Below are positions 1 through 62,559 of a stretch of 64,000 bases of DNA, one piece after another. The notes below the pieces were generated by a model, which was not told where the DNA came from, did not search any database, and worked only from the letters and a program-made list of their open reading frames with translations. Source of the stretch: Nemertoderma westbladi (taxonomy: Eukaryota; Animalia; Xenacoelomorpha); assembly GCA_032718475.1 (NCBI GenBank), contig JAUCBJ010000816.1, positions 1 to 64,000 on the forward strand. The letters are read 5' to 3'. Positions within the stretch are counted from its first letter, which is position 1. Every line of letters starts with the position of its first letter. The translations under genes and the position numbers were made by a program.

Positions 1-3000
1 GTGTGTCCAAATTACCGGTCAGTTATATAAGAACTCTGCCCAACTGAATTAACAACGTGTGTCCAACTTACCGGTCAGTTATATAAGAACTCTGCCCAAC
101 TGAATTAATAACTTGTGTCCAACTTACCTGTCAGTTATATAAGAACTCTGTCCAACTGAATTAACAACGTGTGTCCAAATTACCGCTTAGTTATATAAGA
201 ACTCTGCCCAACTGAATTAACAACGTGTGTCTAACTTACCTGTCAGTTATATAAGAACTCTGCCCAACTGAATTAACAAGGTGTGTCTAACTTACCTGTC
301 AGTTATATAAGAACTCTGCCCAACTTAATTAACAACGTGTGTCCAACTTACCGGTCAGTTAAATAAGAACTCTGCCCAACTTATTTAACAACGTGTGTCC
401 AACTTACCTGTCAGTTATATAAGAACCTTGTCCAACTGTATTAACAACGTGTGTTCAAATTACCGGTCAGTTATATAAGAACTCTGCCCAACTGAATTAA
501 CAACGTGTGTTCAACTTACGGGTCAGTTATATAAGAACTCTGCCCAACTGAATTAACAACGTGTGTCTAACTTACCTGTCAGTTATATAAGAACTCTGCC
601 CAACTGAATTAATAACTTGTGTCCAACTTACCGGTCAGTTATATAAGAACTCTGTCCAACTGAATTAACAACTTGTGTTCAACTTACCTGTCAGTTATAT
701 AAGAACTCTGTCCAACTGAATTAACAACGTGTGTCCAACTTACCGGTCAGTTATATAAGAACTCTGTCCAACTGAATTAACAACGTGTGTCCAACTTTCC
801 GGTCAGTTAAATAAGAACTCCGTCCAACTGAATTAACAGCGTATGTCCAACTTACCTGTCAGTTATATAAGAACTCTGTCCAACTGAATTAACAACTTGT
901 GTCCAACTTACCTGTCAGTTATATAAGAACTCTGCCCAACTGAATTAACAACTTGTGTCCAACTTACCGTTCAGTTATATAACCAACTGAATTAACAACG
1001 TGTGTCCAACTTACCTGTCATTTATATAAGAACTCTGTCCAACTGAATTAAAAACGTGTGTCCAACTTAACCGTCAGTTATAAAAGAATTCTGCCCAACT
1101 GAATTAACAAGGTGTGTCCAACTTACCTGTCAGTTATATAAGAACTCTGCCCAACTGAATTAACAACGTGTTTCCAACTTACGTGTCAGTTATATAAGAA
1201 CTCTGCCCAACTGAATTAACAACGTGTGTCCAAATTACCGGTCAGTTATATAAGAACTCTGCCCAACTGAATTAACAACGTGTGTCCAACTTACCGGTCA
1301 GTTATATAAGAACTCTGCCCAACTGAATTAATAACTTGTGTCCAACTTACCTGTCAGTTATATAAGAACTCTGTCCAACTGAATTAACAACGTGTGTCCA
1401 AATTACCGCTTAGTTATATAAGAACTCTGCCCAACTGAATTAACAACGTGTGTCTAACTTACCTGTCAGTTATATAAGAACTCTGCCCAACTGAATTAAC
1501 AAGGTGTGTCTAACTTACCTGTCAGTTATATAAGAACTCTGCCCAACTGAATTAACAACGTGTGTCTAACTTACCTGTCAGTTATATAAGAACTCTGCCC
1601 AACTGAATTAATAACTTGTGTCCAACTTACCTGTCAGTTATATAAGAACTCTGTCCAACTGAATTAACAACGTGTGTCCAAATTACCGGTCAGTTATATA
1701 AGAACTCTGCCCAACTGAATTAACAACGTGTGTCTAACTTACCTGTCAGTTATATAAGAACTCTGCCCAACTGAATTAACAACTTGTGTCCAACTTACCG
1801 GTCAGTTATATAAGAACTCTGCCCAACTGAATTAATAACTTGTGTCCAACTTACCGGTCAGTTATATAAGAACTCTGCCCAACTGAATTAACAACGTGTG
1901 TCCAACTTACGGGTCAGTTATATAAGAACTCTGCCCAACTGAATTAACAACGTGTGTCTAACTTACCTGTCAGTTATATAAGAACTCTGCCCAACTGAAT
2001 TAATAACTTGTGTCCAACTTACCGGTCAGTTATATAAGAACTCTGTCCAACTGAATTAACAACTTGTGTTCAACTTACCTGTCAGTTATATAAGAACTCT
2101 GCCCAACTGAATTAACAACGTGTGTCCAACTTACGGGTCAGTTATATAAGAACTCTGCCCAACTGAATTAACAACGTGTGTCTAACTTACCTGTCAGTTA
2201 TATAAGAACTCTGCCCAACTGAATTAATAACTTGTGTCAAACTTACCGGTCAGTTATATAAGAACTCTGTCCAACTGAATTAACAACTTGTGTTCAACTT
2301 ACCTGTCAGTTATATAAGAACTCTGTCCAACTGAATTAACAACGTGTGTCCAACTTACCGGTCAGTTATATAAGAACTCTGTCCAACTGAATTAACAGCG
2401 TATGTCCAACTTACCTGTCAGTTATATAAGAACTCTGTCCAACTGAATTAACAACTTGTGTCCAACCCAACTTACCTGTCAGTTATATAAGAACTCTGCC
2501 CAACTGAATTAACAACTTGTGTCCAACTTACCGGTCAGTTATATAACCAACTGAATTAACAACGTGTGTCCAACTTACCTGTCATTTATATAAGAACTCT
2601 GTCCAACTTAATTAACAACGTGTGTCCAACTTAACTGTCAGTTATAAAAGAATTCTGCCCAACTGAATTAACAAGGTGTGTCCAACTTACCTGTCAGTTA
2701 TATAAGAACTCTGCCCAACTGAATTAACAACGTGTGTCCAACTTACCTGTCAGTTATATAAGAACTCTGCCCAACTGAATTAACAACGTGTGTCCAACTT
2801 ACCGGTCAGTTATATAAGAACTCTGTCCAACTTAATTAACAACGTGTGTCCAACTTACCGGTCAGTTATATAAGAACTCTGCCCAACTTATTTAACAACG
2901 TGTGTCCAACTTACCTGTCAGTTATATAAGAACCTTGTCCAACTGTATTAACAACGTGTGTTCAAATTACCGGTCAGTTATATAAGAACTCTGCCCAACT

Positions 3001-6000
3001 GAATTAACAACGTGTGTCCAACTTACGGGTCAGTTATATAAGAACTCTGCCCAACTGAATTAACAACGTGTGTCTAACTTACCTGTCAGTTATATAAGAA
3101 CTCTGCCCAACTGAATTAATAACTTGTGTCCAACTTACCGGTCAGTTATATAAGAACTCTGTCCAACTGAATTAACAACTTGTGTTCAACTTACCTGTCA
3201 GTTATATAAGAACTCTGTCCAACTGAATTAACAACGTGTGTCCAACTTACCGGTCAGTTATATAAGAACTCTGTCCAACTGAATTAACAACGTGTGTCCA
3301 ACTTTCCGGTCAGTTAAATAAGAACTCCGTCCAACTGAATTAACAGCGTATGTCCAACTTACCGGTCAGTTATATAAGAACTCTGTCCAACTGAATTAAC
3401 AACGTGTGTCCAACTTACCGTTCAGTTATATAAGAACTCTGCCCAACTGAATTAACAACGTGTGTCTAACTTACCTGTCAGTTATATAAGAACTCTGCCC
3501 AACTGAATTAATAACTTGTGTCCAACTTACCGGTCAGTTATATAAGAACTCTGTCCAACTGAATTAACAACTTGTGTTCAACTTACCGGTCAGTTATATA
3601 AGAACTCTGTCCAACTGAATTAACAACGTGTGTCCAACTTTCCGGTCAGTTAAATAAGAACTCCGTCCAACTGAATTAACAGCGTATGTCCAACTTACCT
3701 GTCAGTTATATAAGAACTCTGTCCAACTGAATTAACAACTTGTGTCCAACTTACCTGTCAGTTATATAAGAACTCTGCCCAACTGAATTAACAACTTGTG
3801 TCCAACTTACCGTTCAGTTATATAAGAACTCTGCCCAACTGAATTAACAACGTGTGTCTAACTTACCTGTCAGTTATATAAGAACTCTGCCCAACTGAAT
3901 TAATAACTTGTGTCCAACTTACCGGTCAGTTATATAAGAACTCTGCCCAACTGAATTAACAACGTGTGTCTAACTTACCTGTCAGTTATATAAGAACTCT
4001 GCCCAACTGAATTAATAACTTGTGTCCAACTTACCGGTCAGTTATATAAGAACTCTGTCCAACTGAATTAACAACTTGTGTTCAACTTACCGGTCAGTTA
4101 TATAAGAACTCTGTCCAACTGAATTAACAACGTGTGTCCAACTTTCCGGTCAGTTAAATAAGAACTCCGTCCAACTGAATTAACAGCGTATGTCCAACTT
4201 ACCTGTCAGTTATATAAGAACTCTGTCCAACTGAATTAACAACTTGTGTCCAACTTACCTGTCAGTTATATAAGAACTCTGCCCAACTGAATTAACAACT
4301 TGTGTCCAACTTACCGTTCAGTTATATAACCAACTGAATTAACAACGTGTGTCCAACTTACCTGTCATTTATATAAGAACTCTGTCCAACTGAATTAAAA
4401 ACGTGTGTCCAACTTAACTGTCAGTTATTAAAGAATTCTGCCCAACTGAATTAACAAGGTGTGTCCAACTTACCTGTCAGTTATATAAGAACTCTGCCCA
4501 ACTGAATTAACAACGTGTGTCCAACTTACGGGTCAGTTATATAAGAACTCTGCCCAACTGAATTAACAACGTGTGTCCAAATTACCGGTCAGTTATATAA
4601 GAACTCTGCCCAACTGAATTAACAACGTGTGTCCAACTTACCGGTCAGTTATATAAGAACTCTGCCCAACTGAATTAATAACTTGTGTCCAACTTACCTG
4701 TCAGTTATATAAGAACTCTGTCCAACTGAATTAACAACGTGTGTCCAAATTACCGCTTAGTTATATAAGAACTCTGCCCAACTGAATTAACAACGTGTGT
4801 CTAACTTACCTGTCAGTTATATAAGAACTCTGCCCAACTGAATTAACAAGGTGTGTCTAACTTACCTGTCAGTTATATAAGAACTCTGCCCAACTGAATT
4901 AACAACGTGTGTCTAACTTACCTGTCAGTTATATAAGAACTCTGCCCAACTGAATTAATAACTTGTGTCCAACTTACCTGTCAGTTATATAAGAACTCTG
5001 TCCAACTGAATTAACAACGTGTGTCCAAATTACCGGTCAGTTATATAAGAACTCTGCCCAACTGAATTAACAACGTGTGTCCAACTTACGGGTCAGTTAT
5101 ATAAGAACTCTGCCCAACTGAATTAACAACGTGTGTCCAAATTACCGGTCAGTTATATAAGAACTCTGCCCAACTGAATTAACAACGTGTGTCCAACTTA
5201 CGGGTCAGTTATATAAGAACTCTGCCCAACTGAATTAACAACGTGTGTCCAAATTACCGGTCAGTTATATAAGAACTCTGCCCAACTGAATTAACAACGT
5301 GTGTCCAACTTACCGGTCAGTTATATAAGAACTCTGCCCAACTGAATTAATAACTTGTGTCCAACTTACCTGTCAGTTATATAAGAACTCTGTCCAACTG
5401 AATTAACAACGTGTGTCCAAATTACCGCTTAGTTATATAAGAACTCTGCCCAACTGAATTAACAACGTGTGTCTAACTTACCTGTCAGTTATATAAGAAC
5501 TCTGCCCAACTGAATTAACAACGTGTGTCTAACTTACCTGTCAGTTATATAAGAACTCTGCCCAACTGAATTAATAACTTGTGTCCAACTTACCTGTCAG
5601 TTATATAAGAACTCTGTCCAACTGAATTAACAACGTGTGTCCAAATTACCGGTCAGTTATATAAGAACTCTGCCCAACTGAATTAACAACGTGTGTCCAA
5701 CTTACGGGTCAGTTATATAAGAACTCTGCCCAACTGAATTAACAACGTGTGTCCAACTTACCGGTCAGTTATATAAGAACTCTGCCCAACTGAATTAACA
5801 ACGTGTGTCCAACTTACGGGTCAGTTATATAAGAACTCTGCCCAACTGAATTAACAACGTGTGTCCAAATTACCGGTCAGTTATATAAGAACTCTGCCCA
5901 ACTGAATTAACAACGTGTGTCCAACTTACCGGTCAGTTATATAAGAACTCTGCCCAACTGAATTAATAACTTGTGTCCAACTTACCTGTCAGTTATATAA

Positions 6001-9000
6001 GAACTCTGTCCAACTGAATTAACAACGTGTGTCCAAATTACCGCTTAGTTATATAAGAACTCTGCCCAACTGAATTAACAACGTGTGTCTAACTTACCTG
6101 TCAGTTATATAAGAACTCTGCCCAACTGAATTAACAAGGTGTGTCTAACTTACCTGTCAGTTATATAAGAACTCTGCCCAACTGAATTAACAACGTGTGT
6201 CTAACTTACCTGTCAGTTATATAAGAACTCTGCCCAACTGAATTAATAACTTGTGTCCAACTTACCTGTCAGTTATATAAGAACTCTGTCCAACTGAATT
6301 AACAACGTGTGTCCAAATTACCGGTCAGTTATATAAGAACTCTGCCCAACTGAATTAACAACGTGTGTCCAACTTACGGGTCAGTTATATAAGAACTCTG
6401 CCCAACTGAATTAACAACGTGTGTCCAAATTACCGGTCAGTTATATAAGAACTCTGCCCAACTGAATTAACAACGTGTGTCCAACTTACCGGTCAGTTAT
6501 ATAAGAACTCTGCCCAACTGAATTAATAACTTGTGTCCAACTTACCTGTCAGTTATATAAGAACTCTGTCCAACTGAATTAACAACGTGTGTCCAAATTA
6601 CCGCTTAGTTATATAAGAACTCTGCCCAACTGAATTAACAACGTGTGTCTAACTTACCTGTCAGTTATATAAGAACTCTGCCCAACTGAATTAACAAGGT
6701 GTGTCTAACTTACCTGTCAGTTATATAAGAACTCTGCCCAACTGAATTAATAACTTGTGTCCAACTTACCGGTCAGTTATATAAGAACTCTGCCCAACTG
6801 AATTAATAACTTGTGTCCAACTTACCGGTCAGTTATATAAGAACTCTGCCCAACTGAATTAACAACGTGTGTCCAACTTACGGGTCAGTTATAAGAACTC
6901 TGTCCAACTGAATTAACAACGTGTGTCTAACTTACCTGTCAGTTATATAAGAACTCTGCCCAACTGAATTAATAACTTGTGTCCAACTTACCGGTCAGTT
7001 ATATAAGAACTCTGTCCAACTGAATTAACAACTTGTGTTCAATTTACCTGTCAGTTATATAAGAACTCTGCCCAACTGAATTAACAACGTGTGTCCAACT
7101 TACGGGTCAGTTATATAAGAACTCTGCCCAACTGAATTAACAACGTGTGTCTAACTTACCTGTCAGTTATATAAGAACTCTGCCCAACTGAATTAATAAC
7201 TTGTGTCAAACTTACCGGTCAGTTATATAAGAACTCTGCCCAACTGAATTAACAACGTGTGTCTAACTTACCTGTCAGTTATATAAGAACTCTGCCAAAC
7301 TGAATTAACAACGTGTGTCTAACTTACCTGTCAGTTATATAAGAACTCTGTCCAACTGAATTAACAAGGTGTGTCCAACTTACCTGTCAGTTATATAAGA
7401 ACTCTGCCCAACTGAATTAACAACGTGTGTCCAACTTACCTGTCAGTTATATAAGAACTCTGTCCAACTGAATTAACAACGTGTGTCCAACCTACCTGTC
7501 AGTTATATAAGAACTCTGTCCAACTGAATTAACAACGTGTGTCCAACTTACGGGTCAGTTATATAAGAACTCTGCCCAACTGAATTAACAACGTGTGTCT
7601 AACTTACCTGTCAGTTATATAAGAACTCTGCCCAACTGAATTAACAAGGTGTGTCCAACTTACCTGTCAGTTATATAAGAACTCTTCCCAACTGAATTAA
7701 CAACGTGTGTCCAACTTACCTGTCAGTTATATAAGAACTCTGTCCAACTGAATTAACAACGTGTGTCCAACTTACCTGTCAGTTATATAAGAACTCTGTC
7801 CAACTGAATTAACAACGTGTGTCCAACTTACCTGTTAGTTATATAAGAACTCTGTCCAACTGAATTAACAACGTGTGTCCAACTTACCTGTCAGTTATAT
7901 AAGAACTCTGTCCAACTGAATTAACAACGTGTGTCCAACTTACGGGTCAGTTATATAAGAACTCTGTCCAACTGAATTAACAACGTGTGTCCAACTTACC
8001 TGTCAGTTATATAAGAACTCTGTCCAACTGAATTAACAACGTGTGTCCAAATTACCGCTTAGTTATATAAGAACTCTACCCAACTGAATTAACAACGTGT
8101 GTCTAACTTACCTGTCAGTTATATAAGAACTCTGCCCAACTGAATTAACAAGGTGTGTCTAACTTACCTGTCAGTTATATAAGAACTCTGCCCAACTGAA
8201 TTAACAACGTGTGTCTAACTTACCTGTCAGTTATATAAGAACTCTGCCCAACTGAATTAATAACTTGTGTCCAACTTACCTGTCAGTTATATAAGAACTC
8301 TGTCCAACTGAATTAACAACGTGTGTCCAAATTACCGGTCAGTTATATAAGAACTCTGCCCAACTGAATTAACAACGTGTGTCTAACTTACCTGTCAGTT
8401 ATATAAGAACTCTGCCCAACTGAATTAATAACTTGTGTCCAACTTACCGGTCAGTTATATAAGAACTCTGCCCAACTGAATTAATAACTTGTGTCCAACT
8501 TACCGGTCAGTTATATAAGAACTCTGCCCAACTGAATTAACAACGTGTGTCCAACTTACGGGTCAGTTATAAGAACTCTGCCCAACTGAATTAACAACGT
8601 GTGTCTAACTTACCTGTCAGTTATATAAGAACTCTGCCCAACTGAATTAATAACTTGTGTCCAACTTACCGGTCAGTTATATAAGAACTCTGTCCAACTG
8701 AATTAACAACTTGTGTTCAACTTACCTGTCAGTTATATAAGAACTCTGCCCAACTGAATTAACAACGTGTGTCCAACTTACGGGTCAGTTATATAAGAAC
8801 TCTGCCCAACTGAATTAACAACGTGTGTCTAACTTACCTGTCAGTTATATAAGAACTCTGCCCAACTGAATTAATAACTTGTGTCAAACTTACCGGTCAG
8901 TTATATAAGAACTCTGTCCAACTGAATTAACAACTTGTGTTCAACTTACCTGTCAGTTATATAAGAACTCTGCCAAACTGAATTAACAACGTGTGTCTAA

Positions 9001-11239
9001 CTTACCTGTCAGTTATATAAGAACTCTGTCCAACTGAATTAACAAGGTGTGTCCAACTTACCTGTCAGTTATATAAGAACTCTGCCCAACTGAATTAACA
9101 ACGTGTGTCCAACTTACCTGTCAGTCATATAAGAACTCTGTCCAACTGAATTAACAACGTGTGTCCAACTTACCTGTCAGTTATATAAGAACTCTGTCCA
9201 ACTGAATTAACAACGTGTGTCTAACTTACCTGTCAGTTATATAAGAACTCTGCCCAACTGAATTAATAACTTGTGTCCAACTTACCGGTCAGTTATATAA
9301 GAACTCTGTCCAACTGAATTAACAACTTGTGTTCAACTTACCTGTCAGTTATATAAGAACTCTGCCCAACTGAATTAACAACGTGTGTCCAACTTACGGG
9401 TCAGTTATATAAGAACTCTGCCCAACTGAATTAACAACGTGTGTCTAACTTACCTGTCAGTTATATAAGAACTCTGCCCAACTGAATTAATAACTTGTGT
9501 CAAACTTACCGGTCAGTTATATAAGAACTCTGTCCAACTGAATTAACAACTTGTGTTCAACTTACCTGTCAGTTATATAAGAACTCTGCCAAACTGAATT
9601 AACAACGTGTGTCCAACTTACCTGTCAGTTATATAAGAACTCTGTCCAACTGAATTAACAACGTGTGTCCAACTTACCTGTTAGTTATATAAGAACTCTG
9701 TCCAACTGAATTAACAACGTGTGTCCAACTTACCTGTCAGTTATATAAGAACTCTGTCCAACTGAATTAACAACGTGTGTCCAACTTACCTGTCAGTTAT
9801 ATAAGAACTCTGCCCAACTGAATTAACAACGTGTGTCCAACTTACCTGTCAGTTATATAAGAACTCTGTCCAACTGAATTAACAACGTGTGTCCAATTTA
9901 CCTGTCAGTTATATAAGAACTCTGCCCAACTGAATTAACAACGTGTGTCCAACTTACCTGTCAGTTATATAAGAACTCTGTCCAACTGAATTAACAACGT
10001 GTGTCCAACTTACCTGTCAGTTATATAAGAACTCTGTCCAACTGAATTAACAACGTGTGTTCAACTTACCTGTCAGTTATATAAGAACTCTTCCCAACTG
10101 AATTAACAACGTGTGTCCAACTTACCTGTCAGTTATATAAGAACTCTGTCCAACTGAATTAACAACGTGTGTCCAACTTACCTGTCAGTTATATAAGAAC
10201 TATGTCCAACTGAATTAACAACGTGTGTCCAACTTACCTGTCAGTTATATAAGAACTCTGTCCAACTGAATTAACAACCTGTGTCCAACTTACCTGTCAG
10301 TTATATAAGAACTCTGTCCAACTGAATTAACAACATGTGTCCAACTTACCTGTCAGTTATATAAGAACTCTGCCCAACTGAATTAACAACGTGTGTCCAA
10401 CTTACCTGTCAGTTATATAAGAACTCTGTCCAACTGAATTAACAACGTGTGTCCAACTTACATGTCAGTTATATAAGAACTCTGTCCAACTGAATTAACA
10501 ACGTGTGTCCAACTTACCTGTCAGTTATATAAGAACTCTGTCCAACTGAATTAACAACGTGTGTCCAACTTACCTGTCAGTTATATAAGAACTATGTCCA
10601 ACTGAATTAACAACGTGTGTCCAACTTACCTGTCAGTTATATAAGAACTCTGTCCAACTGAATTAACAACGTGTGTCCAACTTACCTGTCAGTTATATAA
10701 GAACTCTGTCCAACTGAATTAACAACGTGTGTCCAACTTACCTGTCAGTTATATAAGAACTCTGTCCAACTGAATTAACAACGTGTGTCCAACTTACCTG
10801 TCAGTTATATAAGAACTCTGTCCAACTGAATTAACAACGTGTGTCCAACTTACCTGTTAGTTATATAAGAACTCTGCCCAACTGAATTAACAACGTGTGT
10901 CCAACTTACCTGTCAGTTATATAAGAACTCTGTCCAACTGAATTAACAACGTGTGTCCAACTTACCTGTCAGTTATATAAGAACTCTGCCCAACTGAATT
11001 AACAACGTGTGTCCAACTTGCCTGTCAGTTATATAAGAACTCTGTCCAACTGAATTAACAACGTGTGTCCAACTTACCTGTCAGTTATATACGAACTCTG
11101 CCCAACTGAATTAACAACGTGTGTCCAACTTACCTGTCAGTTATATAAGAACTCTGTCCAACTGAATTAACAACGTGTGTCCAACTTACCTGTCAGTTAT
11201 ATAAGAACTCTGTGCAACTGAATTAACAACGTGTGTCCA
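1..11239. repeat. 56-bp tandem satellite (~200 units, continues off the left edge) in CFAP70 intron 5
   Basis: Unit GTGTGTCCAACTTACCTGTCAGTTATATAAGAACTCTG(T/C)CCAACTGAATTAACAAC recurs every 56 nt (positions 1, 57, ...). The last 50 nt (11190-11239) overlap the coding exon. Confidence 0.98.
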
Positions 11240-11326
11240 CCGCTTCTGTCGTTGTTGAACGTCTTTATCATTGGCGGATTTTAGAGATCCGTTGGCAAAA
11301 ATAGCGATCCTATATTGATCCTTTTG
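11190..11326 (-). CDS. CFAP70: CFAP70 coding exon 5 (QKDQYRIAIFANGSLKSANDKDVQQRQKRWTHVVNSVAQSSYITD)
   Basis: Acceptor ttttgtAG, donor CAG|GTAAGT; 137 nt; in phase with the previous exon. IFANGSLK...RQKRW resembles the vertebrate CFAP70 LFKNGTLK...RPKKW segment as recalled. The gene continues outside the window. Confidence 0.85.
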
Positions 11327-11423
11327 CTACAAAATAAAGAAAATTAAACGGAATTTTTCATAAACACTTTTAACGCCCAGATAAGAATTTTGGTAAAAAG
11401 TTTTAAAATAATATGCAACTCAC

Positions 11424-11598
11424 TTGGTCACTTGACAGTAAAGGCATAGATAGGTTGTAGTTGAAGGCGTGGTTAATATTCCATGAATCAGGACAATTGT
11501 AAAGGGATTCAACATTTATTGTCATAACGTTTGTGGATGGAATGAGTGGCTCATTGATGAGAGGTTGGTTCACCGAAATTATAATATCGATAACCGGT
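11424..11598 (-). CDS. CFAP70: CFAP70 coding exon 4 (RPVIDIIISVNQPLINEPLIPSTNVMTINVESLYNCPDSWNINHAFNYNLSMPLLSSDQ)
   Basis: Acceptor tattacAG, donor CAA|GTGAGT; 175 nt (1+58x3). Completes the AG|A Arg codon from exon 3. Resembles the recalled CFAP70 NLLKVTLEAAYSVPES region. Confidence 0.85.
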
Positions 11599-11679
11599 CT
11601 GTAATAATAAACCGATAATTAATTAGTTAGTTAGGTCGACCAATAAAATTGTAATAATTTGACCAGTATAAAACGATAT

Positions 11680-14600
11680 CCTCGTGGTTAAATATAAAGT
11701 GTTTCTATTGGCTAACCTCGTGGTTTCACTATAAAGTGTTTCTATTGGCTAACCTCGTGGTTTCAGTATAAAGTGTTTCTATTGGATAACGTCGTGGTTC
11801 AAATATAAAGTGTTTCTATTGGCTAACCTCGTGGTTTCAGTATAAAGTGTTTCTATTGGCTAACCTCGTGGTTTTATAAGAATGTAAGTGTCTCTATTGG
11901 CTAACTTCGTGGTTCAATTATACAATGTTTCTATTGGCTAACCTCGTGGTTTTATAAGAATGTTTCTATTGGCTAACCTCGTGATTCCATTATAAAGTGT
12001 TTATATTGGCTAACCTCGTGGTTTCAGTATAAAGTGTTTCTATTGGCTAACCTCGTGGTTTTATAAGAATGTTTCTATTGGCTAACCTCGTGATTCCATT
12101 ATAAAGTGTTTCTATTGGCTAACCTCGTGGTTTTATAAGAATGTGTATATTGGCTAACCTCGTGATTCAATTATAGATTGTTTCTATTGGCTAACCTCGT
12201 GGTTCAATTATAAAGTGTTTCTATTGGCTAACCTAGTGGTTTTATAAGAATGTTTCTATTGGCTAACCTCGTGGTTCAATTATAAACTGTTTCTATTGGC
12301 TAACCTCGTGATTCCATTATAAAGTGCTTCTACTGGCTAACCTCGTGGTTTCAGTATAAAGTGTTTCTATTGGCTAACCTCGTGGTTTTATAAGAATGTT
12401 TCTATTGGCTAACCTCGTGATTCCATTATAAAGTGATTCTATTGGCTAACCTCGAGGTTTTATAAGAATGTAAGTGTCTTTATTGGCTAACCTCGTGGTT
12501 CAATTGTAAACTGTTTCTATTGGCTAACCTCGTGGTTTTATAAGAATGTTTCTATTGGCTAACCTCGTTGTTCAATTATAAACTGTTTCTATTGGCTAAC
12601 CTCGTGGTTTTATATGAATGTTTCTATTGGCTAACCTCGTGATTCCATTATAAAGTGTTTCTATTGGCTAACCTCGTGGTTTCAGTATAAAGTGTTTCTA
12701 TTGGCTAACCTCGAGGTTTTATAAGAATGTAAGTGTCTTTATTGGCTAACCTCGTGGTTCAATTATAAACTGTTTCTATTGGCTAACCTCGTGGTTTTAT
12801 AAGAATGTTTCTATTGGCTAACCTCGTGGTTCAATTATAAACTGTTTCTATTGGCTAACCTCGTGGTTTTATAAGAATGTAAGTGTCTCTATTGGCTAAA
12901 CTCGTGGTTTCAGTATAAAGTGTTTCTATTGGCTAACCTCGTGGTTTCAGTATAAAGTGTTTCTATTGGCTAACCTCGTGGTTTCAGTATAAAGTGTTTC
13001 TATTCGCTAACCTCGTGGTTTCAGTATAAAGTGTTTCTATTGGCTAACCTCGTGGTTTTATAAAAATGTCTCTATTGGCTAATCTCGTGGTTCGATTAAA
13101 ACTGTTTCTATTGGCTAACCTCGTGGTTCAATTATAAAGTGTTTCTGTTGGCTAACCTCGTGGTTATATAAGAATGTTTCGATTGGCCACCCTCGTGGTA
13201 TCAGTATAAAGTGTTTCTATTGGCTAACCTCGTGGTTTCAGTATAAAGTGTTTCTATTGGCTAACCTCGTGGTTTCAGTATAAAGTGTTTCTATTGGCTA
13301 ACCTCGTGGGTTTATAAGAATGTTTCTATTGGCTAACCTCGTGGTTTTATAAGAATGTGTTTCTATTGGCTAACCTCGTGGTTCCATTATAAAGTGTTTC
13401 TATTGGCTAACCTCGTGGTTTTATAAGAATGTTTCTATTGGCTAACCTCGTGGTTCAATTATAAACTGTTTCTATTGGCTAACCTTGTGGTTCAATTATA
13501 AATAGTTTCTATTGGCTAACCTCGTGGTTCCATTATAAAGTGTTTCTATTGGCTAACCTCGTGGTTCCATTATAAAGTGTTTCTATTGGCTAACCTCGTG
13601 GTACAATTATAAAGAGTTTCTATTGGCTAACCTCGTGGTTTTATAAGAATGTGTTTCTATTGGCTAACCTCGTGGTTCCATTATAAAGTGTTTCTATTGG
13701 CTAACTTCGTGGTTCAATTATAAAGTGTTTCTAATGGCGAACCTCGTAGTTTCAGGAGAAAGTGTTTCTATTGGCTAACCTCGTGGTTCCATTATAAAGT
13801 GTTTCTATTGGCTAACCTCGTGGTTTCAGTATAAAGTGTTTCTATTGGCTAACCTCGTGGTTTCAGTATAAAGTGTTTCTATTTGCTAACCTCGCGGTTT
13901 CAGTATAAAGTGTTTCTATTGTCTAACCTCGTGATTCCATTATAAAGTGTTTCTATTGGCTAACCTCGTGGTTTCAGTATAAAGTGTTTCTATTCGCTAA
14001 CCTCGTGGTTTTATAAGAATGTTTCTATTGGCTAACCTCGTGGTTTTATAAGAATGTTTCTATTGGCTAACCTCGTGGTTCAATTATAAAGTGTTTCTAT
14101 TGGCTAACCTCGTGGTTCCATTATAAAGTGTTTCTATTGGCTAACCTCGTGGTTTCAGTATAAAGTGTTTCTATTGGCTAACCTCGTGGTTTCAGTATAA
14201 AGTGTTTCTATTTGCTAACCTCGCGGTTTCAGTATAAAGTGTTTCTATTGTCTAACCTCGTGATTCCATTATAAAGTGTTTCTATTGGCTAACCTCGTGG
14301 TTTCAGTATAAAGTGTTTCTATTCGCTAACCTCGTGGTTTTATAAGAATGTTTCTATTGGCTAACCTCGTGGTTTTATAAGAATGTTTCTATTGGCTAAC
14401 CTCGTGGTTCAATTATAAACTGTTTCTATTGGCTAACCTTGTGGTTCAATTATAAATAGTTTCTATTGGCTAACCTCATGGTTCCATTATAAAGTGTTTC
14501 TATTGGCTAACCTCGTGGTTCCATTATAAAGTGTTTCTATTGGCTAACCTCGTGGTTCAATTATAAACTGTTTCTATTGGCTAACCTTGTGGTTCAATTA

Positions 14601-17600
14601 TAAATAGTTTCTATTGGCTAACCTCGTGGTTCCATTATAAAGTGTTTCTATTGGCTAACCTCGTGGTTCCATTATAAAGTGTTTCTATTGGCTAACCTCG
14701 TGGTTCAATTATAAACTGTTTCTATTGGCTAACCTTGTGGTTCAATTATAAATAGTTTCTATTGGCTAACCTCGTGGTTCCATTATAAAGTGTTTTTATT
14801 GGCTAACCTCGTGGTTCCATTATAAAGAGTTTCTATTGGCTAACCTCGTGGTTTTATAAGAATGTGTTTCTATTGGCTAACCTCGTGGTTCCATTATAAA
14901 GTGTTTCTATTGGCTAACTTCGTGGTTCAATTATAAAGTGTTTCTAATGGCGAACCTCGTAGTTTCAGGAGAAAGTGTTTCTATTGGCTAACCTCGTGGT
15001 TTTATAAGAATGTGTTTCTATTGGCTAACCTCGTGGTTCCATTATAAAGTGTTTCTATTGGCTAACCTCGTGGTTTCAGTATAAAGTGTTTCTATTGGCT
15101 AACCTCGTGGTTTCAGTATAAAGTGTTTCTATTGGCTAACCTCGTGGTTCCATTATAAAGTGTTTCTATTGGCTAACCTCGTGGTTTCAGTATAAAGTGT
15201 TTCTATTGGCTAACCTCGTGGTTTCAGTATAAAGTGTTTCTATTTGCTAACCTCGCGGTTTCAGTATAAAGTGTTTCTATTGTCTAACCTCGTGATTCCA
15301 TTATAAAGTGTTTCTATTGGCTAACCTCGTGGTTTCAGTATAAAGTGTTTCTATTCGCTAACCTCGTGGTTTTATAAGAATGTTTCTATTGGCTAACCTC
15401 GTGGTTTTATAAGAATGTTTCTATTGGCTAACCTCGTGGTTCAATTATAAACTGTTTCTATTGGCTAACCTTGTGGTTCAATTATAAATAGTTTCTATTG
15501 GCTAACCTCGTGGTTCCATTATAAAGTGTTTCTATTGGCTAACCTCGTGGTTCAATTATAAACTGTTTCTATTGGCTAACCTTGTGGTTCAATTATAAAT
15601 AGTTTCTATTGGCTAACCTCGTGGTTCCATTATAAAGTGTTTCTATTGGCTAACCTCGTGGTTCCATTATAAAGAGTTTCTATTGGCTAACCTCGTGGTT
15701 TTATAAGAATGTGTTTCTATTGGCTAACCTCGTGGTTCCATTATAAAGTGTTTCTATTGGCTAACTTCGTGGTTCAATTATAAAGTGTTTCTAATGGCGA
15801 ACCTCGTAGTTTCAGGAGAAAGTGTTTCTATTGGCTAACCTCGTGGTTCCATTATAAAGTGTTTCTATTGGCTAACCTCGTGGTTTCAGTATAAAGTGTT
15901 TCTATTGGCTAACCTCGTGGTTTCAGTATAAAGTGTTTCTATTTGCTAACCTCGCGGTTTCAGTATAAAGTGTTTCTATTGTCTAACCTCGTGATTCCAT
16001 TATAAAGTGTTTCTATTGGCTAACCTCGTGGTTTCAGTATAAAGTGTTTCTATTCGCTAACCTCGTGGTTTTATAAGAATGTTTCTATTGGCTAACCTCG
16101 TGGTTTTATAAGAATGTTTCTATTGTCTAACCTCGTGATTCCATTATAAAGTGTTTCTATTGGCTAACCTCGTGGTTTCAGTATAAAGTGTTTCTATTCG
16201 CTAACCTCGTGGTTTATAAGAATGTTTCTATTGGCTAACCTCGTGGTTTTATAAGAATGTTTCTATTGGCTAACCTCGTGGTTCAATTATAAAGTGTCCC
16301 TATTGGCTAACCTCGTGGTTCAATTATAAAGTGTTTCTATTGGCTAACCTCGTGGACCAATTATAAAGTGTTTCTATTGGTTAACCTCGTGGTTTTATAA
16401 GAATGTTTCTATTGCTAACCTCGTGGTTTTATAAGAATGTTTATATTGGCTAACCTCTTGGTTCAATTATAAAGTGTTTCTATTGGCTAACCTCGTGGTT
16501 CAATTATAAAATGTTTCTATTGGCTAACCTCGTGGTTCAATTATAAAGTGTCTTTATTGGCTAACCTCGTGGTTCAATTATACAGAGTTTCTTGGCTAAC
16601 CTCGTGGTTTTATAAAAATGTGTTTCTATTGGCTAACCTCGTGGTTGTTCCATTATAAAGTGTTTCTATTGGCTAACCTCGTGGTTTCAGTATAAAGTGT
16701 TTCTATTGGCTAACCTCGTGGTTCAATTATAAAGTGTTTCTATTAGCTAACCTCGTGGTTCAATTATAAACTGTTTCTATTGGCTAACCTCGTGGTTCAA
16801 TTATAAACTGTTTCTATTGGCTAACCTCGTGGTTCAATTATAAAGTGTTTCTATTGGCTAACCTCGTGGTTCAATTATAAAGTGTTTCTATTGGCTAACC
16901 TCGTGGTTTCAGGAGAAAGTGTTTCTATTGGCTAACCTCGTGGTACCATTATAAAGTGTTTATATTGGCTAACCTCGTGGTTTTATAAGAATGTTTTTAT
17001 TGGCTAACCTCGTGGTTCAATTATAATGTGTTTCTGTTGGCTAACCTCGTGGTTCAATTATAAAGTATTTCTATTGACTAACCTCGTGGTTCAATTATAA
17101 AGTGTTTCTATTGGCTAACCTCGTGGTTTTATAAGAATGTAAGTGTCTCTATTGGCTAACCTCGTGGTTCAATTATAAAGTATTTCTATTGACTAACCTC
17201 GTGGTTCAATTATAAAGTGTTTCTATTGGCTAACCTCGTGGTTTTATAAGAATGTAAGTGTCTCTATTGGCTAACCTCGTGGTTCAATTATAAAGTATTT
17301 CTATTGACTAACCTCGTGGTTCAATTATAAAGTGTTTCTATTGGCTAACCTCGTGGTTTTATAAGAATGTTTCTATTGGCTAACCTCGTGGTTTCAGGAG
17401 AAAGTGTTTCTATTGGCTAACCTCGTGGTACCATTATAAAGTGTTTATATTGGCTAACCTCGTGGTTTTATAAGAATGTTTTTATTGGCTAACCTCGTGG
17501 TTCAATTATAATGTGTTTCTGTTGGCTAACCTCGTGGTTCAATTATAAAGTATTTCTATTGACTAACCTCGTGGTTCAATTATAAAGTGTTTATATTGGC

Positions 17601-20600
17601 TAACCTCGTGGTTTTATAAGAATGTTTTTATTGGCTAACCTCGTGGTTCAATTATAATGTGTTTCTGTTGGCTAACCTCGTGGTTCAATTATAAAGTGTT
17701 TCTATTGGCTAACCTCGTGGTTTTATAAGAATGTTTCTATTGGCTAACCTCGTGGTTTCAGGAGAAAGTGTTTCTATTGGCTAACCTCGTGGTACCATTA
17801 TAAAGTGTTTATATTGGCTAACCTCGTGGTTTTATAAGAATGTTTTTATTGGCTAACCTCGTGGTTCAATTATAATGTGTTTCTGTTGGCTAACCTCGTG
17901 GTTCAATTATAAAGTATTTCTATTGACTAACCTCGTGGTTCAATTATAAAGTGTTTATATTGGCTAACCTCGTGGTTTTATAAGAATGTTTTTATTGGCT
18001 AACCTCGTGGTTCAATTATAATGTGTTTCTGTTGGCTAACCTCGTGGTTCAATTATAAAGTATTTCTATTGACTAACCTCGTGGTTCAATTATAAAGTGT
18101 TTCTACTGGCTAACCTCGTGGTTCAATTATAAAGTGTTTCTATTGGCTAACGCCGTGGTTCAATTATAAAGTGTTTCTATTGGCTAACCTCGTGGTTCAA
18201 TTATAAAGTGTTTCTATTGGCTAACCTCGTGGTTTTATAAGAATGTTTCTATTGGCTAACCTCGTGGTTTTATAAGAATGTTTCTATTGGCTAACCTCGT
18301 GGTTCAATTATAAAGTGTTTCTATTGGCTAACCTCGTGGTTTTATAAGAATGTTTCTATTGGCTAACCTCGTGGTTTTATAAGAATGTTTCTATTGGCTA
18401 ACCTCGTGGTTCAATCATAAAGTGTTTCTATTGGTTAACCTCGTGGTTTTATAAGAATGTTTCTATTGCTAACCTCGTGGTTTTATAAGAATGTTTTTAT
18501 TGGCTAACCTCGTGGTTCAATTATAAAGTGTTTCTATTGGCTAACCTCGTGGTTTCAGTATAAAGTGTTTCTATTGGCTAACCTCGTGGTTCAATTATAA
18601 AGTGTTTCTATTGGCTAACCTCGTGGTTTTATAAGAATGTTTCTATTGGCTAACCTCGTGGTTTTATAAGAATGTTTCTATTGGCTAACCTCGTGGTTCA
18701 ATTATAAAGTGTTTCTATTGGCTAACCTCGTGGTTTTATAAGAATGTTTCTATTGGCTAACCTCGTGGTTTTATAAGAATGTTTCTATTGGCTAACCTCG
18801 TGGTTCAATCATAAAGTGTTTCTATTGGTTAACCTCGTGGTTTTATAAGAATGTTTCTATTGCTAACCTCGTGGTTTTATAAGAATGTTTTTATTGGCTA
18901 ACCTCGTGGTTCAATTATAAAGTGTTTCTATTGGCTAACCTCGTGGTTTCAGTATAAAGAGTTTCTATTGGCTAACCTCGTGGTTTTATAAGAATGTAAG
19001 TGTCTCTATTGGCTAACCTCGTGGTTCAATTATAAAGTGTTTCTATTGGCTAACCTCGTGGTTCAATTATAAAGTGTTTCTATTGGCTAACCTCGTGGTT
19101 TTATAAGAATGTTTTTATTGGCTAACCTCGTGGTTCAATTATAAAGTGTTTCTATTTGCTAACCTCGTGGTTCAATTATAAAGTGTTTCTATTGGCTAAC
19201 CTCGTGGTTTTTTAAGAATGTAAGTGTCTCTATTGGCTAACCTCGTCGTTCAATTATAAAGTGTTTCTATTGGCTAACCTCGTGGTTTCAGTATAAAGTG
19301 TTTCTATTGGCTAACCTCGTGGTTCAATTATAAAGTGTTTCTATTGGCTAACCTCGTGGTTTTATAAGAAAGTAAGTGTTTCTATTGGCTAACCTCGTGG
19401 TTCAATTATAAAGTGTTTATATTGGCTAACCTCGTGGTTTCAGTATAAAGTGTTTCTATTGGCTAACCTCGTGGTTTTATAAGTAAGAATGTTTTTATTG
19501 GCTAACCTCGTGGTTCAATTATAAAGTGTTTCTACTTGCTAACCTCGTGGTTTTATAAGAATGTTTCTATTGGCTAACCTCGTGGTTCAATTATAAACTG
19601 TTTCTATTGGCTAACCTCGTGGTTTCAGTATAAAGTGTTTATATTGGCTAACCTCGTGGTTTCAGTAGAAAGTGTTTCTATTGGCTAACCTCGTGGTTTC
19701 AGTATAAAGTGTTTCTATTGGCTAAACTCGTGGTTTCAGTATAAAGTGTTTCTATGGGCTAACCTCGTGGTTTTATAAAAATGTCTCTATTGGCTAATCT
19801 CGTGGTTCGATTATAAACTGTTTCTATTGGCTAACCTCGTGGTTCAATTATAAAGTGTTTCTGTTGGCTAACCTCGTGGTTTTATAAGAATGTTTCGATT
19901 GGCCAACCTCGTGGTATCAGTATAAAGTGTTTCTATTGGCTAACCTCGTGGTTTCAGTATAAAGTGTTTCTATTGGCTAACCTCGTGGTTTCAGTATAAA
20001 GTGTTTCTATTGGCTAACCTCGTGGGTTTATAAGAACGTTTCTATTGGCTACCCTCGTGGTTTTATAAGAATGTGTTTCTATTGGCTAACCTCGTGGTTC
20101 CATTATAAAGTGTTTCTATTGGCTAACTTCGTGGTTCAATTATAAAGTGTTTATATTGGCTAACCTTGTGGTTCAATTATAAAGAGTTTCTATTGGCTAA
20201 CCTCGTGGTTTTATAAGAATGTGTTTCTATTGGCTAACCTCGTGGTTCCATTATAAAGTGTTTCTATTGGCTAACCTCGTGGTACAATTATAAAGAGTTT
20301 CTATTGGCTAACCTCGTGGTTCCATTTTAAAGTGTTTCTATTGGCTAACCTCGTGGTTCAATTATAAAGTGTTTCTATTGGCTAACCTCGTGGTTCAATT
20401 ATAAAGTGTTTCTATTGGCTAACCTCGTGGTTCAATTATAAAGTGTTTCTACTGGCTAACCTCGTGGTTCAATTATAAAGTGTTTCTATTGGCTAACCTT
20501 GTGGTTCAATTATAAAGTGTTTCTACTGGCTAACCTCGTGGTTCAATTATAAAGTGTTTCTACTGGCTAACCTCGTGGTTCAATTATAAAGTGTTTCTAT

Positions 20601-23600
20601 TGGCTAACCCCGTGGTTCAATTATAAAGTGTTTCTATTGGCTAACCTCGTGGTTCAATTATAAAGTGTTTCTATTGGCTAACCTCGTGGTTTTATAAGAA
20701 TGTTTCTATTGGCTAACCTCGTGGTTTTATAAGAATGTTTCTATTGGCTAACCTCGTGGTTCAATTATAAAGTGTTTCTATTGGCTAACCTCGTGGTTTT
20801 ATAAGAATGTTTCTATTGGCTAACCTCGTGGTTTTATAAGAATGTTTCTATTGGCTAACCCCGTGGTTCAATTATAAAGTGTTTCTATTGGCTAACCTCG
20901 TGGTTCAATTATAAAGTGTTTCTACTTGCTAACCTCGTGGTTTTATAAGAATGTTTCTATTGGCTAACCTCGTGGTTTTATAAGAATGTGTTTCTATTGG
21001 CTAACCTCATGGTTCCATTATAAAGTGTTTCTATTGGCTAACCTCGTGGTTCAATTATAAAGTGTTTCTATTGGCTAACCTCGTGGTTCAATTATAAAGT
21101 GTTTCTACTGGCTAACCTCGTGGTTCAATTATAAAGTGTTTCTATTGGCTAACCTCGTGGTTCAATTATAAAGTGTTTCTACTGGCTAACCTCGTGGTTC
21201 AATTATAAAGTGTTTCTACTGGCTAACCTCGTGGTTCAATTATAAAGTGTTTCTATTGGCTAACCCCGTGGTTCAATTATAAAGTGTTTCTATTGGCTAA
21301 CCTCGTGGTTCAATTATAAAGTGTTTCTATTGGCTAACCTCGTGGTTTTATAAGAATGTTTCTATTGGCTAACCTCGTGGTTTTATAAGAATGTTTCTAT
21401 TGGCTAACCCCGTGGTTCAATTATAAAGTGTTTCTATTGGCTAACCTCGTGGTTCAATTATAAAGTGTTTCTATTGGCTAACCTCGTGGTTTTATAAGAA
21501 TGTTTCTATTGGCTAACCTCGTGGTTCAATTATAAAGTGTTTCTATTGGCTAACCTCGTGGTTTTATAAGAATGTTTCTATTGGCTAACCTCGTGGTTTT
21601 ATAAGAATGTTTCTATTGGCTAACCTCGTGGTTCAATTATAAAGTGTTTCTATTGGTTAACCTCGTGGTTTTATAAGAATGTTTCTATTGCTAACCTCGT
21701 GGTTTTATAAGAATGTTTTTATTGGCTAACCTCGTGGTTCAATTATAAAGTGTTTCTATTGGCTAACCTCGTGGTTTCAGTATAAAGTGTTTCTATTGGC
21801 TAACCTCGTGGTTTTATAAGAATGTAAGTGTCTCTATTGGCTACCTCGTGGTTCAATTATAAAGTGTTTCTATTGGCTAACCTCGTGGTTCAATTATAAA
21901 GTGCTTCTATTGGCTAACCTCGTGGTTTTATAAGAATGTTTTTATTGGCTAACCTCGTGGTTCAATTATAAAGTGTTTCTATTGGCTAACCTTGTGGTTC
22001 AATTATAAAGTGTTTCTATTGGCTAACCTCGTGGTTCCATTATAAAGTGTTTCTATTGGCTAACCTCGTGGTTTCAGTATAAAGTGTTTCTACTTGCTAA
22101 CCTCGTGGTTCAATTATAAAGTGTTTCTATTGGCTAACCTCGTGGTTTCACTATAAAGTGTTTCTATTGGCTAACCTCGTGGTTTCAGTATAAAGTGTTT
22201 CTATTGGCTAACCTCGTGGTTCAATTATAAAGTGTTTCTATTGGCTAACCTCGTGGTTTTATAAGAAAGTAAGTGTTTCTATTGGCTAACCTCGTGGTTC
22301 AATTATAAAGTGTTTCTATTGGCTAACCTCGTGGTTTCAGTATAAAGTGTTTCTATTGGCTAACCTCGTAGTTTTATAAGTAAGAATGTTTTTATTGGCT
22401 AACCTCGTGGTTCAATTATAAAGTGTTTCTACTTGCTAACCGCGTGGTTTTATAAGAATGTTTCTATTGGCTAACCTCGGGGTTCAATTATAAAGTGTTT
22501 CTATTGGCTAACCTCGTGGTTCAATTATAAAGTGTTTCTATTGGCTAACCTCGTGGTTCAATTATAAAGTGTTTCTACTGGCTAACTTCGTGGTTCGATT
22601 ATAAAGTGTTTCTATTGGCTAACCTCGTAGTTCAATTATAAAGTGTTTCTATTGGCTAACGTCGTGGTTGTATAAGAATGTTTCTATTGGCTAACTTCGT
22701 GGTTCAATTATAAAGTGTTTCTATTGGCTAACCTCGTGGTTCAATTATAAAGTGTTTCTACTGGCTAACCTCGTGGTTCAATTATAAAGTGTTTCTATTG
22801 GCTAACCTCGTGGTTTTATAAGAAAGTAAGTGTTTCTATTGGCTAACCTCGTGGTTCAATTATAAAGTGTTTCTATTGGCTAACCTCGTGGTTTCAGTAT
22901 AAAGTGTTTCTATTGGCTAACCTCGTGGTTCAATTATAAAGTGTTTCTATTGGCTAACCTCGTGGTTTTATAAGAAAGTAAGTGTTTCTATTGGCTAACC
23001 TCGTGGTTCAATTATTAAGTGTTTCTATTGGCTAACCTCGTGGTTCAATTATAAAGTGTTTCTATTGGCTAACCTCGTGGTTTCAGTATAAAGTGTTTCT
23101 ATTGGCTAACCTCGTGGTTTTATAAGAATGTTTCTATTGGCTAACCTCGTGGTTCAATTATAAAGTGTTTCTACTTGCTAACCTCGTGGTTCAATTATAA
23201 AGTGTTTCTATTGGCTAACCTCGTGGTTCAATTATAAAGAGTTTCCATTGGCTAACCTCGTGGTTTCAGTATAAAGTGTTTCTATTGGCTAACCTCGCGG
23301 TTTCAGTATAAAGTGTTTCTATTGTCTAACCTCGTGGTTTTATAAGAATGTTTCTATTGGCTAACCTCGTGGTTCAATTATAAAGTGTTTCTATTGGCTA
23401 ACCTCGTGGTCCAATTATAAAGTGTTTCTATTGGCTAACCTCGTGGTTCAATTATAAAGTGTTTCTATTGGCTAACCTCGTGGATCCATTATACAGTGTT
23501 TCTAATGGCTAACCTCGTGGTTCAATTATAAAGTGTCCCTATTGGCTAACCTCGTGGTTCAATTATAAAGTGTTTCTATTGGCTAACCTCGTGGATCCAT

Positions 23601-23725
23601 TATACAGTGTTTCTAATGGCTAACCTCGTGGTTCAATTATAAAGTGTCCCTATTGGCTTACCTCGTGATTTTATAAGAATGTTTATATTGGCTAACCTCG
23701 TGGTTTCAGGAGAAAGTGTTTCTAT
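11680..23725. repeat. 35-41-bp (mostly 37-bp) tandem satellite (~330 units) filling CFAP70 intron 3
   Basis: Constant core TGTTTCTATTGGCTAACCTCGTGGTT with a few recurring variable segments (CAATTATAAAG, TCAGTATAAAG, CCATTATAAAG, TTATAAGAA, TCAGGAGAAAG). The last 29 nt overlap exon 3. Confidence 0.98.
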
Positions 23726-23877
23726 GGGAGACCCTGGAGTTGGGTGGATCAGCTGGCTGAATTCCAATCGAGTCTCTCCCCTCAGTAAATTAACCAATGG
23801 GAAGGACGATTGACCCAATACCAAGGTCTTTTCCTCTTTTTGTTTTTTCTCTTTCGGCAAAATTTCCGTAATAGTCA
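23697..23877 (-). CDS. CFAP70: CFAP70 coding exon 3 (VTITEILPKEKKQKEEKTLVLGQSSFPLVNLLRGETRLEFSQLIHPTPGSPIETLSPETT)
   Basis: The motif TE(I/V)LPKEKKQKEEKTL(V/I)LGQ...HPxxGSP(I/L)ET is characteristic of CFAP70/TTC18 as recalled. Acceptor ttacttcAG, donor GAG|GTTAGC; 181 nt; phases fit both neighbours. Confidence 0.92.
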
Positions 23878-24088
23878 CTGAAGTAAATAAATTAACGTAA
23901 AAAATATCCTAAAAATTCACTATAACTAAAATCGAATTAATTTGGATATAGTCCGAAAGAGGAAGGCGCTACACTTGAAGGAATCCGCCATCCATCAAAT
24001 AAAACATTAAACTGTTCAATTAATTATTGTTTAAAAAACCGTCAATATCCGAGTACCGGTATACCAGTTTATACAGCCCTATACTTAC

Positions 24089-24284
24089 CCAGTACAGGTC
24101 TGTAAGCGATTTCGTCCAGTGTATAAGGCCCCGATCCCTCGAACAGACATTCCATCTGGCTGTTGAACCCGTATTCAGCGGTTAGACTTGGCGCAGACGA
24201 TTCGCATTTTGGCGATTCACCTAAAACTTGGAATCCAAATTCAACTTTCACGGAAGATGTAACAGATTCGCCTTTCACTCCGCG
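24089..24284 (-). CDS. CFAP70: CFAP70 coding exon 2 (RGVKGESVTSSVKVEFGFQVLGESPKC...TLDEIAYRPVL)
   Basis: Acceptor tttttacctgcAG, donor G|GTAAGT; 196 nt (65x3+1). Resembles the recalled CFAP70 KGFKGD...AEFNQVVLGDSAK...DDLAHKPV segment. Confidence 0.9.
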
Positions 24285-24402
24285 CTGCAGGTAAAAATTA
24301 TTCAATTAATTTTAATAATGAATAACTTCAATCTTAAAATTTAATATTAATATTAGGCTGGTTTCGCAACCCGTCACGCTTTGGGGATGATATTAAACTC
24401 AC

Positions 24403-24477
24403 CAGATTCCGTGCCCTCGCCACTGTTATCTGTATGGGCTGAGAAGGGCGGCCCTTCAGGAAATCCTCATCAGCCAT
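24403..24477 (-). CDS. CFAP70: CFAP70 first coding exon (MADEDFLKGRPSQPIQITVARARNL)
   Basis: aaaATGG start, 75 nt, donor CTG|GTGAGT, phase 0 into exon 2. The QITV motif matches the CFAP70 N-terminus as recalled. Confidence 0.85.
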
Positions 24478-24941
24478 TTTAGGTTTGTCTGCCGGAATTC
24501 GCTTAATAAACCAGATAGAAACGAAGACAAACAGTTATATTTAATAATAAATAATTTCGGTATAAAATATATTAGGCCTAAATAAATATTGTAAGCAAAT
24601 TGCAAATAGAGATGGTAAACCCGGTTAAAAAAATCTAACTGCTGTAAGCCTATTAGTCCGTAATTTCAACACTATTCGCTATTATTGTGGCGTGACTGAT
24701 TCACGCGACGTGTAAATCAAGGACGAGGCTCAAAAGGTCGTCCATCTTTCGTTAGTAGAATACCGGTAAATAAATGCATCCTATATCTCTGTACCGGAAC
24801 ATATTGTATGTGTATTATACGCTAAATCTAAATGTACAGGATATTATACAAATACAATTAATGCCTAACAGTGGCTACCGGTAAGAGTATCTGATGTGTG
24901 CTAACAGCTGATGTAGGAATCATAAAGTTACAGCGTATATA

Positions 24942-29598: not shown

Positions 29599-29714
29599 CT
29601 GCAAACCTTAATGTGAAATTTGTTATGTTATGAATTTAGTGTGAGATTTTAAGAACGACTGCAGTGCAACCACGTAGGAGGGGGCGGGGGGGGGGGGGGG
29701 GACTTCTTTGGCTA

Positions 29715-62475: not shown

Positions 62476-62559
62476 GTTTGTTTACACAGTTGAATGTCTA
62501 CTGCTATTACAGTCTAAGTAAGTCTAGTAATTCAGTATTAACTGCTAGCCTAGTAATTA

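Follow-up and report, generated by a model that had tools for sequence, protein, structure and literature searches.

We analyzed a 64,000-nt stretch of the Nemertoderma westbladi genome (assembly GCA_032718475.1, contig JAUCBJ010000816.1, positions 1 to 64,000; hereafter the window) and found that its minus strand carries the first five exons of CFAP70, in which introns 3 and 5 hold large tandem arrays, each built from the end of the preceding exon and that exon's own 5′ splice site (donor). The coding part of exon 1 lies at 24403-24477, with a 5′ untranslated region that extends to at least 24560, and exon 2 lies at 24089-24284; both are placed by homology and by a spliced contig from an independent sequence run, X4. 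Exon 3 is found at 23697-23877, exon 4 at 11424-11598 and exon 5 at 11190-11326. Joined at GT-AG introns, the five exons give a stop-free frame of 254 codons, and introns 1 to 5 measure 118, 211, 12,098, 97 and >11,189 bp, the fifth crossing the window edge. Exon 3 matches the CFAP70 chain 9ijj_k in the PDB (E 1.6e-14), and in a protein-collection search with exon 3, 70 of 134 candidates passed, the named ones being CFAP70/TTC18 or hypothetical proteins. When 8 of these 70 proteins were aligned with the joined five-exon frame, the frame was colinear with residues about 1-250 of seven full-length homologues (scores 372-591, shuffled maximum 53), and for the eighth, which is a fragment of 141 residues, the match was largely to exon 3. 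A PDB search with exon 4 alone returned 0 chains; exon 4 still aligns when the joined frame is compared with the homologues.

In intron 3, Tandem Repeats Finder (TRF) reports a 37-bp array at 11680-23725 (minus strand; 327.8 copies, 87% matches), and in intron 5 it reports a 56-bp array at 1-11239 (minus strand; 201.2 copies, 93% matches) that runs off the window edge. Unit 1 of the 37-bp array joins the final 29 nt of exon 3 to 8 intronic bases (GTTAGCCA), and unit 1 of the 56-bp array is the final 50 nt of exon 5 plus the 6 intronic bases GTAAGT; beyond these coding copies, intron 3 carries 327 and intron 5 at least 200 further copies. Together, TRF and the exon model confirm all coordinates, the unit make-up and the intron sizes given by a first-pass annotation of the same sequence, as well as its statement that each array starts with a unit of coding sequence. 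The two units are also unrelated to one another, as that annotation had said: their local alignment score of 14 is matched by 65% of 2000 shuffles. Counting the coding copy, we found that the 37-bp array has 328 units of 34-41 nt, 103 of them distinct, with a mean pairwise distance of 12%, and that the 56-bp array has 201 units, 60 of them distinct, with a mean pairwise distance of 7%. The GT is retained in 316/328 37-bp units and 193/201 56-bp units (coding copies included), and the complete 9-mer of the real donor is present in 270/328 and 110/201 units, respectively. No 16-mer of either unit occurs in the 64-kb window outside its own array, and a 24-base piece of the 37-bp unit had 0 exact matches in metagenome contigs, where the organism may not be represented.

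At its 3′ end, intron 3 has a non-repeat tail of 82 nt (11599-11680, minus strand) that is AT-rich and contains a TTACAG acceptor and CTAAC motifs, which we take to be branch-point-like. The last 37-bp unit, whose GT position lies 82 nt from the exon 4 acceptor, has lost the GT and is 9 edits from the exon copy, and the first ~18 nt of the tail may be a decayed partial unit. The earlier figure of ~80 bp of unique sequence in intron 3 needs this small correction, as some of the tail may be repeat-derived. The penultimate unit is intact and places a donor 118 nt from the exon 4 acceptor.

Independent support for the exon 3 donor and the 37-bp array comes from other sequence runs, while the exon 5 donor and the 56-bp array are drawn from homology and this window. 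We compared four of eight listed runs with the window over 23640-24560; none of the eight is recorded as RNA. In run X4 (from another study and recorded as "DNA?"), a single 2624-nt contig contains exons only. It skips introns 1 and 2 at GT-AG, and it passes from the end of exon 3 at 23697 directly into the first bases of exon 4. We read this contig, from its own structure, as a transcript assembly; a retrocopy is unlikely, since run X4 covers no intron. The join of exon 3 to exon 4 indicates that the first donor of the 37-bp array (GAG|GTTAGC) is used, so at intron 3 a regular mRNA is made from the authentic site in this one contig from one run. The possibility raised in the first-pass annotation, that RNA would show other exon boundaries, could thus be checked at exon 3, where the predicted donor is the one in use. 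No X4 contig covers the first intronic 37-bp units, although assembled contigs lose rare forms. The contig continues for 2072 nt past exon 3, of which exons 4 and 5 account for only 312, a length that would fit splicing past the 56-bp array as well. The exon 5 donor, CAG|GTAAGT, is assigned from homology and a conserved intron position.

In run X2 (from a further study, DNA), the junction of exon 3 with the array is present over 46 nt without differences, at a depth of 28.9 as compared to 31.2 for single-copy sequence; elsewhere X2 differs from the window by a 3-nt gap and one base. The X2 repeat contigs contain many unit variants and have a summed depth of 626-1278 as compared to 31, which shows that there are many 37-bp copies but does not give their number. 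Runs X6 and X7 (same study, other organisms) yielded no contigs over 23640-24560 at 85% likeness, an uninformative outcome.

The used donor of intron 3 agrees with 6 of 9 positions of the donor consensus and is predicted to be less open than 89% of 314 spare donors. It is thus both weak and less accessible than most of its copies, indicating that position, not strength or folding, selects it. We found no consistent masking of spare donors by predicted RNA folding, with openness of the real donor and its copies at 0.32 and 0.41 for intron 3 and at 0.64 and 0.49 for intron 5. Reading through the real donor reaches a stop after 61 nt in intron 3 and after 1 nt in intron 5.

To place the arrays in relation to the age of the introns, we compared them with CFAP70 loci of other animals. 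A search of 15 of the 64 parts of a metagenome collection gave 594 candidate stretches, from which two CFAP70 loci of other animals (L001 and L002) were obtained. Read by homology and GT-AG boundaries, both loci carry a counterpart of intron 5, identical to it in codon and phase. Both also have an intron at the intron 3 codon (L001 4794-7092; L002 2503-2894), in phase 0 where the window has phase 2 (23697/11598). The junction repeated in the units is the one in place today, so this apparent 1-nt slide of intron 3 predates the array. Where both intron ends were covered, the intron 3 counterparts are 2297 bp (L001) and 390 bp (L002) long, the intron 5 counterpart in L002 is 309 bp long, and TRF finds no array over the intron 3 or intron 5 donors in either locus. 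In protein isoforms, a salmonid gap ends at the intron 3 codon; no vertebrate isoform gap has a boundary at the intron 5 position, which is weak evidence either way, and one armadillo isoform deletion (residues 202-263) spans that position. Because introns stand at both positions in L001 and L002 without arrays, the arrays inflated existing introns instead of creating them. In both units, the exon-derived portion aligns with conserved residues of CFAP70, indicating that the repeats derive from the exons. Separately, L001 has a 22-bp repeat at 11492-11572 (3.7 copies) that is wholly intronic and ends just before the acceptor of the exon 5 homologue.

Within the arrays, the longest exact internal duplicates are 460 bp (37-bp array) and 726 bp (56-bp array), and duplicates are spaced at many different lags; unequal exchange would give this pattern, whereas a single assembly slip would not. 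There is no fixed higher-order period in either array; lags 3-4 and 23 are weakly elevated. Shared variants, block duplications and an aberrant edge unit (the last 37-bp unit) are all present, as in repeats under concerted evolution. When equal-length units were compared (241 of the 37-bp and 194 of the 56-bp units), variability in the donor 9-mer was indistinguishable from that at the other unit positions (Mann-Whitney p 0.18 and 0.07, in opposite directions), and there is thus no sign of selection on the spare donors. The 56-bp copies close to exon 5 are the most exon-like, with a mean of 1.7 edits in the first 25 as compared to 3.8 in the other 175 (Spearman 0.35), with a p-value that is inflated because neighboring units along an array are not independent. 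The 37-bp array has no gradient with distance from the exon (Spearman –0.09, p 0.12). Six internal 37-bp units (at 17777, 17413, 16928, 15831, 14984 and 13771, minus strand), 6-10 kb inside the array, carry an exon-type core, and three of the six are identical to the coding copy, which suggests either that sequence was exchanged with the exon, possibly by conversion from exon to array, or that the founding unit has survived. The exon-derived part contains an in-frame stop in 133 of the 241 equal-length 37-bp copies, so conversion from array to exon would often do harm.

Repeats of this architecture have been described in lancelets under the name "mirage" minisatellites (Canestro et al. 2002, as cited in PMC3087553 and PMC3902484). 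As in those repeats and in the human F7 gene, the first unit of each CFAP70 array spans the exon-intron boundary and the splice signal is reiterated in the intron. The CFAP70 arrays are therefore boundary-spanning minisatellites of the mirage or F7 type, and they are unusual only in size. The first-pass annotation, which had left open whether this form had been described, is superseded on this point. Mirages occur in the lancelet genes for Adh3, troponin C, the globins BflGb6 and BflGb9, and PGBD5 (PMC3087553, PMC3902484); they are found at both types of boundary, 5′ and 3′, splicing is normal, the units evolve in concert and are aberrant at the array edges, and how mirages arise is described as unclear (PMC3087553). 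In PGBD5, unrelated 60-bp and 108-bp repeats are present, and the first unit of each abuts a 5′ splice site (PMC3902484). Lancelet mirages thus resemble CFAP70 in their repeated exon-intron boundary, several unrelated arrays per gene, normal mRNA and concerted evolution with edge units that are aberrant. In contrast, the globin and PGBD5 mirages have 2-7 units as compared to 328 and at least 201 in CFAP70, and mirages lie at acceptors as well as donors whereas the CFAP70 arrays lie at donors. A tandem duplication across a donor is therefore not the one geometry that spares the mRNA, as had been proposed, given that mirages also occur at 3′ boundaries (PMC3087553).

In human F7, a variable number tandem repeat (VNTR) in intron 7 has a 37-bp unit in 5-9 copies, the first of which crosses the exon 7 boundary with 4 exonic and 33 intronic bases (PMC1557585). 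Other donor-spanning human VNTRs are those of 6-16 (25 spare donors), CBS intron 13 (15-20 copies), LMNB2 (100 bp, 10-15 copies) and PDGF intron 4 (81 bp, 16-18 copies); in F7, LMNB2 and PDGF splicing takes the most upstream donor, while 6-16 and CBS use two spare donors as well (PMC1557585). These VNTRs share with CFAP70 a first unit across the boundary followed by identical donors in the intron, but they have about ten to sixty times fewer units, the F7 unit is mostly intronic whereas the CFAP70 units are mostly exonic (29 + 8 and 50 + 6), and the spare-donor use of 6-16 and CBS is not seen in the one CFAP70 contig. Overall, the CFAP70 arrays have hundreds of units as compared to 2-26 in the published cases that we compared. 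Internal tandem repeats at the boundaries of human duplicated genes have been attributed to minisatellite expansion and can create introns or alternative forms (PMC2812944); they lengthen introns at boundaries as in CFAP70, where, however, the introns are ancient and not new. In the literature covered, which was partial, we found neither a boundary array with hundreds of units nor a genome-wide test of donors against acceptors for such arrays.

The first-pass annotation had also drawn a likeness to Drosophila Y-linked genes. The Drosophila Y genes with giant introns are axonemal and their introns consist of simple satellites that are not known to come from an exon end. These satellite introns of male-fertility genes reach hundreds of kb to Mb (PMC6508613, PMC11207136). 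Inflation by repeats is common to both systems, but in CFAP70 intron 3, at 12,098 bp, and intron 5, at no less than 11,189 bp, are about 12 kb in size, and the likeness is a loose one.

Taken together, we consider it likely that both arrays began as chance tandem duplications across a donor, which were tolerated since the real donor stays intact, and then grew by ordinary satellite turnover. In this scheme, a 37-bp and a 56-bp segment would each have been duplicated once, independently, by slippage or unequal exchange. The most upstream donor stayed in use, as the spliced contig shows for intron 3 and as would hold for intron 5, and the protein was unchanged; use of a later donor would add a stop, and the product would likely be cleared by nonsense-mediated decay. 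Unequal crossing-over or conversion would then have amplified and partly homogenized the units, as their variant structure suggests. This would account for block duplications that differ widely in size and for the decay of the last unit, and some sequence was probably also exchanged with the coding copy. With the other introns at 97-211 nt, donor-spanning seeds make up a large share of the harmless ones, so no special mechanism is needed for two hits at donors: by our placement arithmetic they are 37-96% of harmless placements in introns of 88-118 nt, on our own assumptions that at least 6 intronic bases are needed and that the last 30-40 nt of the intron are barred. The same outcome in human F7 (PMC1557585) and in the lancelet mirages (PMC3087553, PMC3902484) counts in favor of this explanation. 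The suggestion in the first-pass annotation that the duplication geometry leaves the mRNA intact is likewise supported by first-donor use at intron 3, by introns older than the arrays and by the stops met on read-through.

Several points weigh against an origin by tolerated chance duplication. The donor-spanning share drops to 14-30% for ancestral introns of 211-385 nt, and longer introns are found at both outgroup loci. Both units stop 6-8 nt into the intron, for which even placement gives ~3/31 × 3/50 = 0.6% (a post hoc figure with n = 2), and this might hint at a breakpoint linked to the splice site. Tolerance accounts for the seed but leaves unexplained how the arrays at two of the five donors reached ~12 kb, and the remaining arrays in the window are all <1 kb. 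The spare donor at 118 nt from the acceptor lies at a normal intron length for this gene, and its silence is read from one assembled contig. Finally, neutrality is deduced from a missing signal, which concerted evolution can blur.

A rival reading is a process coupled to splicing or transcription, in which breakpoints are set where the U1-bound donor ends (through a co-transcriptional pause or an R-loop, for example) and exon-donor repeats are preferentially seeded and expanded in this lineage. Two independent arrays in one gene that both end 6-8 nt past the donor, the exon-like 56-bp copies nearest the exon and the exon-type units deep in the 37-bp array count in its favor, and the lancelet work leaves the generating mechanism of mirages unclear (PMC3087553). 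However, the 4 + 33 unit of F7 (PMC1557585) indicates that a short intronic part is not general, lancelet mirages lie at acceptors too (PMC3087553), the 37-bp array lacks a gradient and the 56-bp gradient is subject to the non-independence of its units; we therefore regard this process as unlikely. The broader claim, that a lineage process with breakpoints at +6 to +8 turns exon ends into multi-kb satellites that exchange with the coding copy and so acts as a general engine of intron inflation, is doubtful to a similar degree. That the arrays are kept for a function, as decoy donors, as long introns that adjust when or how much CFAP70 is made, or as a ladder for recursive (zero-length exon) splicing, is very unlikely. 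CFAP70 is axonemal, as are the Drosophila giant-intron genes, and AG|GT at 300/327 internal junctions of the 37-bp array and 112/200 of the 56-bp array would regenerate the same donor, the 112 all being YAG|GT. In contrast, only 1/327 37-bp junctions is YAG|GT, and at the two unit junctions inspected the preceding 40 nt contain 3 competing AGs, as compared to 0-1 at the four real acceptors. The –2 A is among the most variable positions of the 56-bp unit (40%), the donors are not extra-conserved, the folding mask is inconsistent, and the arrays are missing in both L001 and L002.

It is highly improbable that the arrays are real but much shorter, with a length inflated in assembly. Run X2 does give only short repeat contigs, and their depth cannot be read as a number of copies, and the 56-bp array is known from the window only. 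Against this, the 103 and 60 distinct variants stand in irregular order, exact internal duplicates are ≤726 bp, and the X2 repeat contigs total 20-40 times single-copy depth over the first few units alone. The probability that the introns were born by tandem duplication of exonic AG|GT (Rogers-type intron gain), or that an older satellite was exonized, seems close to negligible. Both junctions are AG|GT, and the armadillo deletion over the intron 5 position is a weak hint of mammals that lack that intron. Nevertheless, introns stand at both positions in L001 and L002, the salmonid gap stops at the intron 3 codon, the 3′ end of intron 3 is non-repeat sequence and the exonic parts of the units match homologous protein; the outgroup loci already largely refute such an origin.

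Elsewhere in the window, a 51/54-bp repeat of ~7-8 units at 27237-27657 (27080-27836, minus strand) was considered as a third donor array and was not counted, as it lies inside open frames of 240-250 codons; the one frame scanned there has no Pfam match. TRF also finds tandem arrays at 33802-34767 (467-bp unit), 37632-38462 (414 bp), 45066-45677 (68 bp) and 40166-40297 (17 bp), which are not tied to any exon. Frames of a BEL/Pao-type retrotransposon occupy 54355-62481 on the minus strand, with Peptidase_A17, DUF1759, Integrase_H2C2 and DUF5641 domains and a short alanine-rich coding repeat at 61048-61312. Adjoining it at 48461-52747 (minus strand) is a 1428-codon open frame with Cys/His-rich motifs near its end, and a 431-codon open frame lies at 28332-29627 (minus strand); neither has a Pfam match.

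In this gene, two introns have been inflated roughly 60-150-fold by their own exon ends. The rule of first-donor use, known for fewer than 30 competing copies, is extended here to about 300, in a setting where the other introns are 100-200 nt long. In practice, donor arrays of this kind can also mislead gene prediction and the assembly of short reads. If a genome-wide count were to find breakpoints piled at the donor edge, this would link the birth of satellites to splicing, where the origin of mirages has been called unclear (PMC3087553). The arrays would then be natural test beds in which a single donor prevails over some 300 nearly identical copies, including one that lies only 118 nt from the acceptor.

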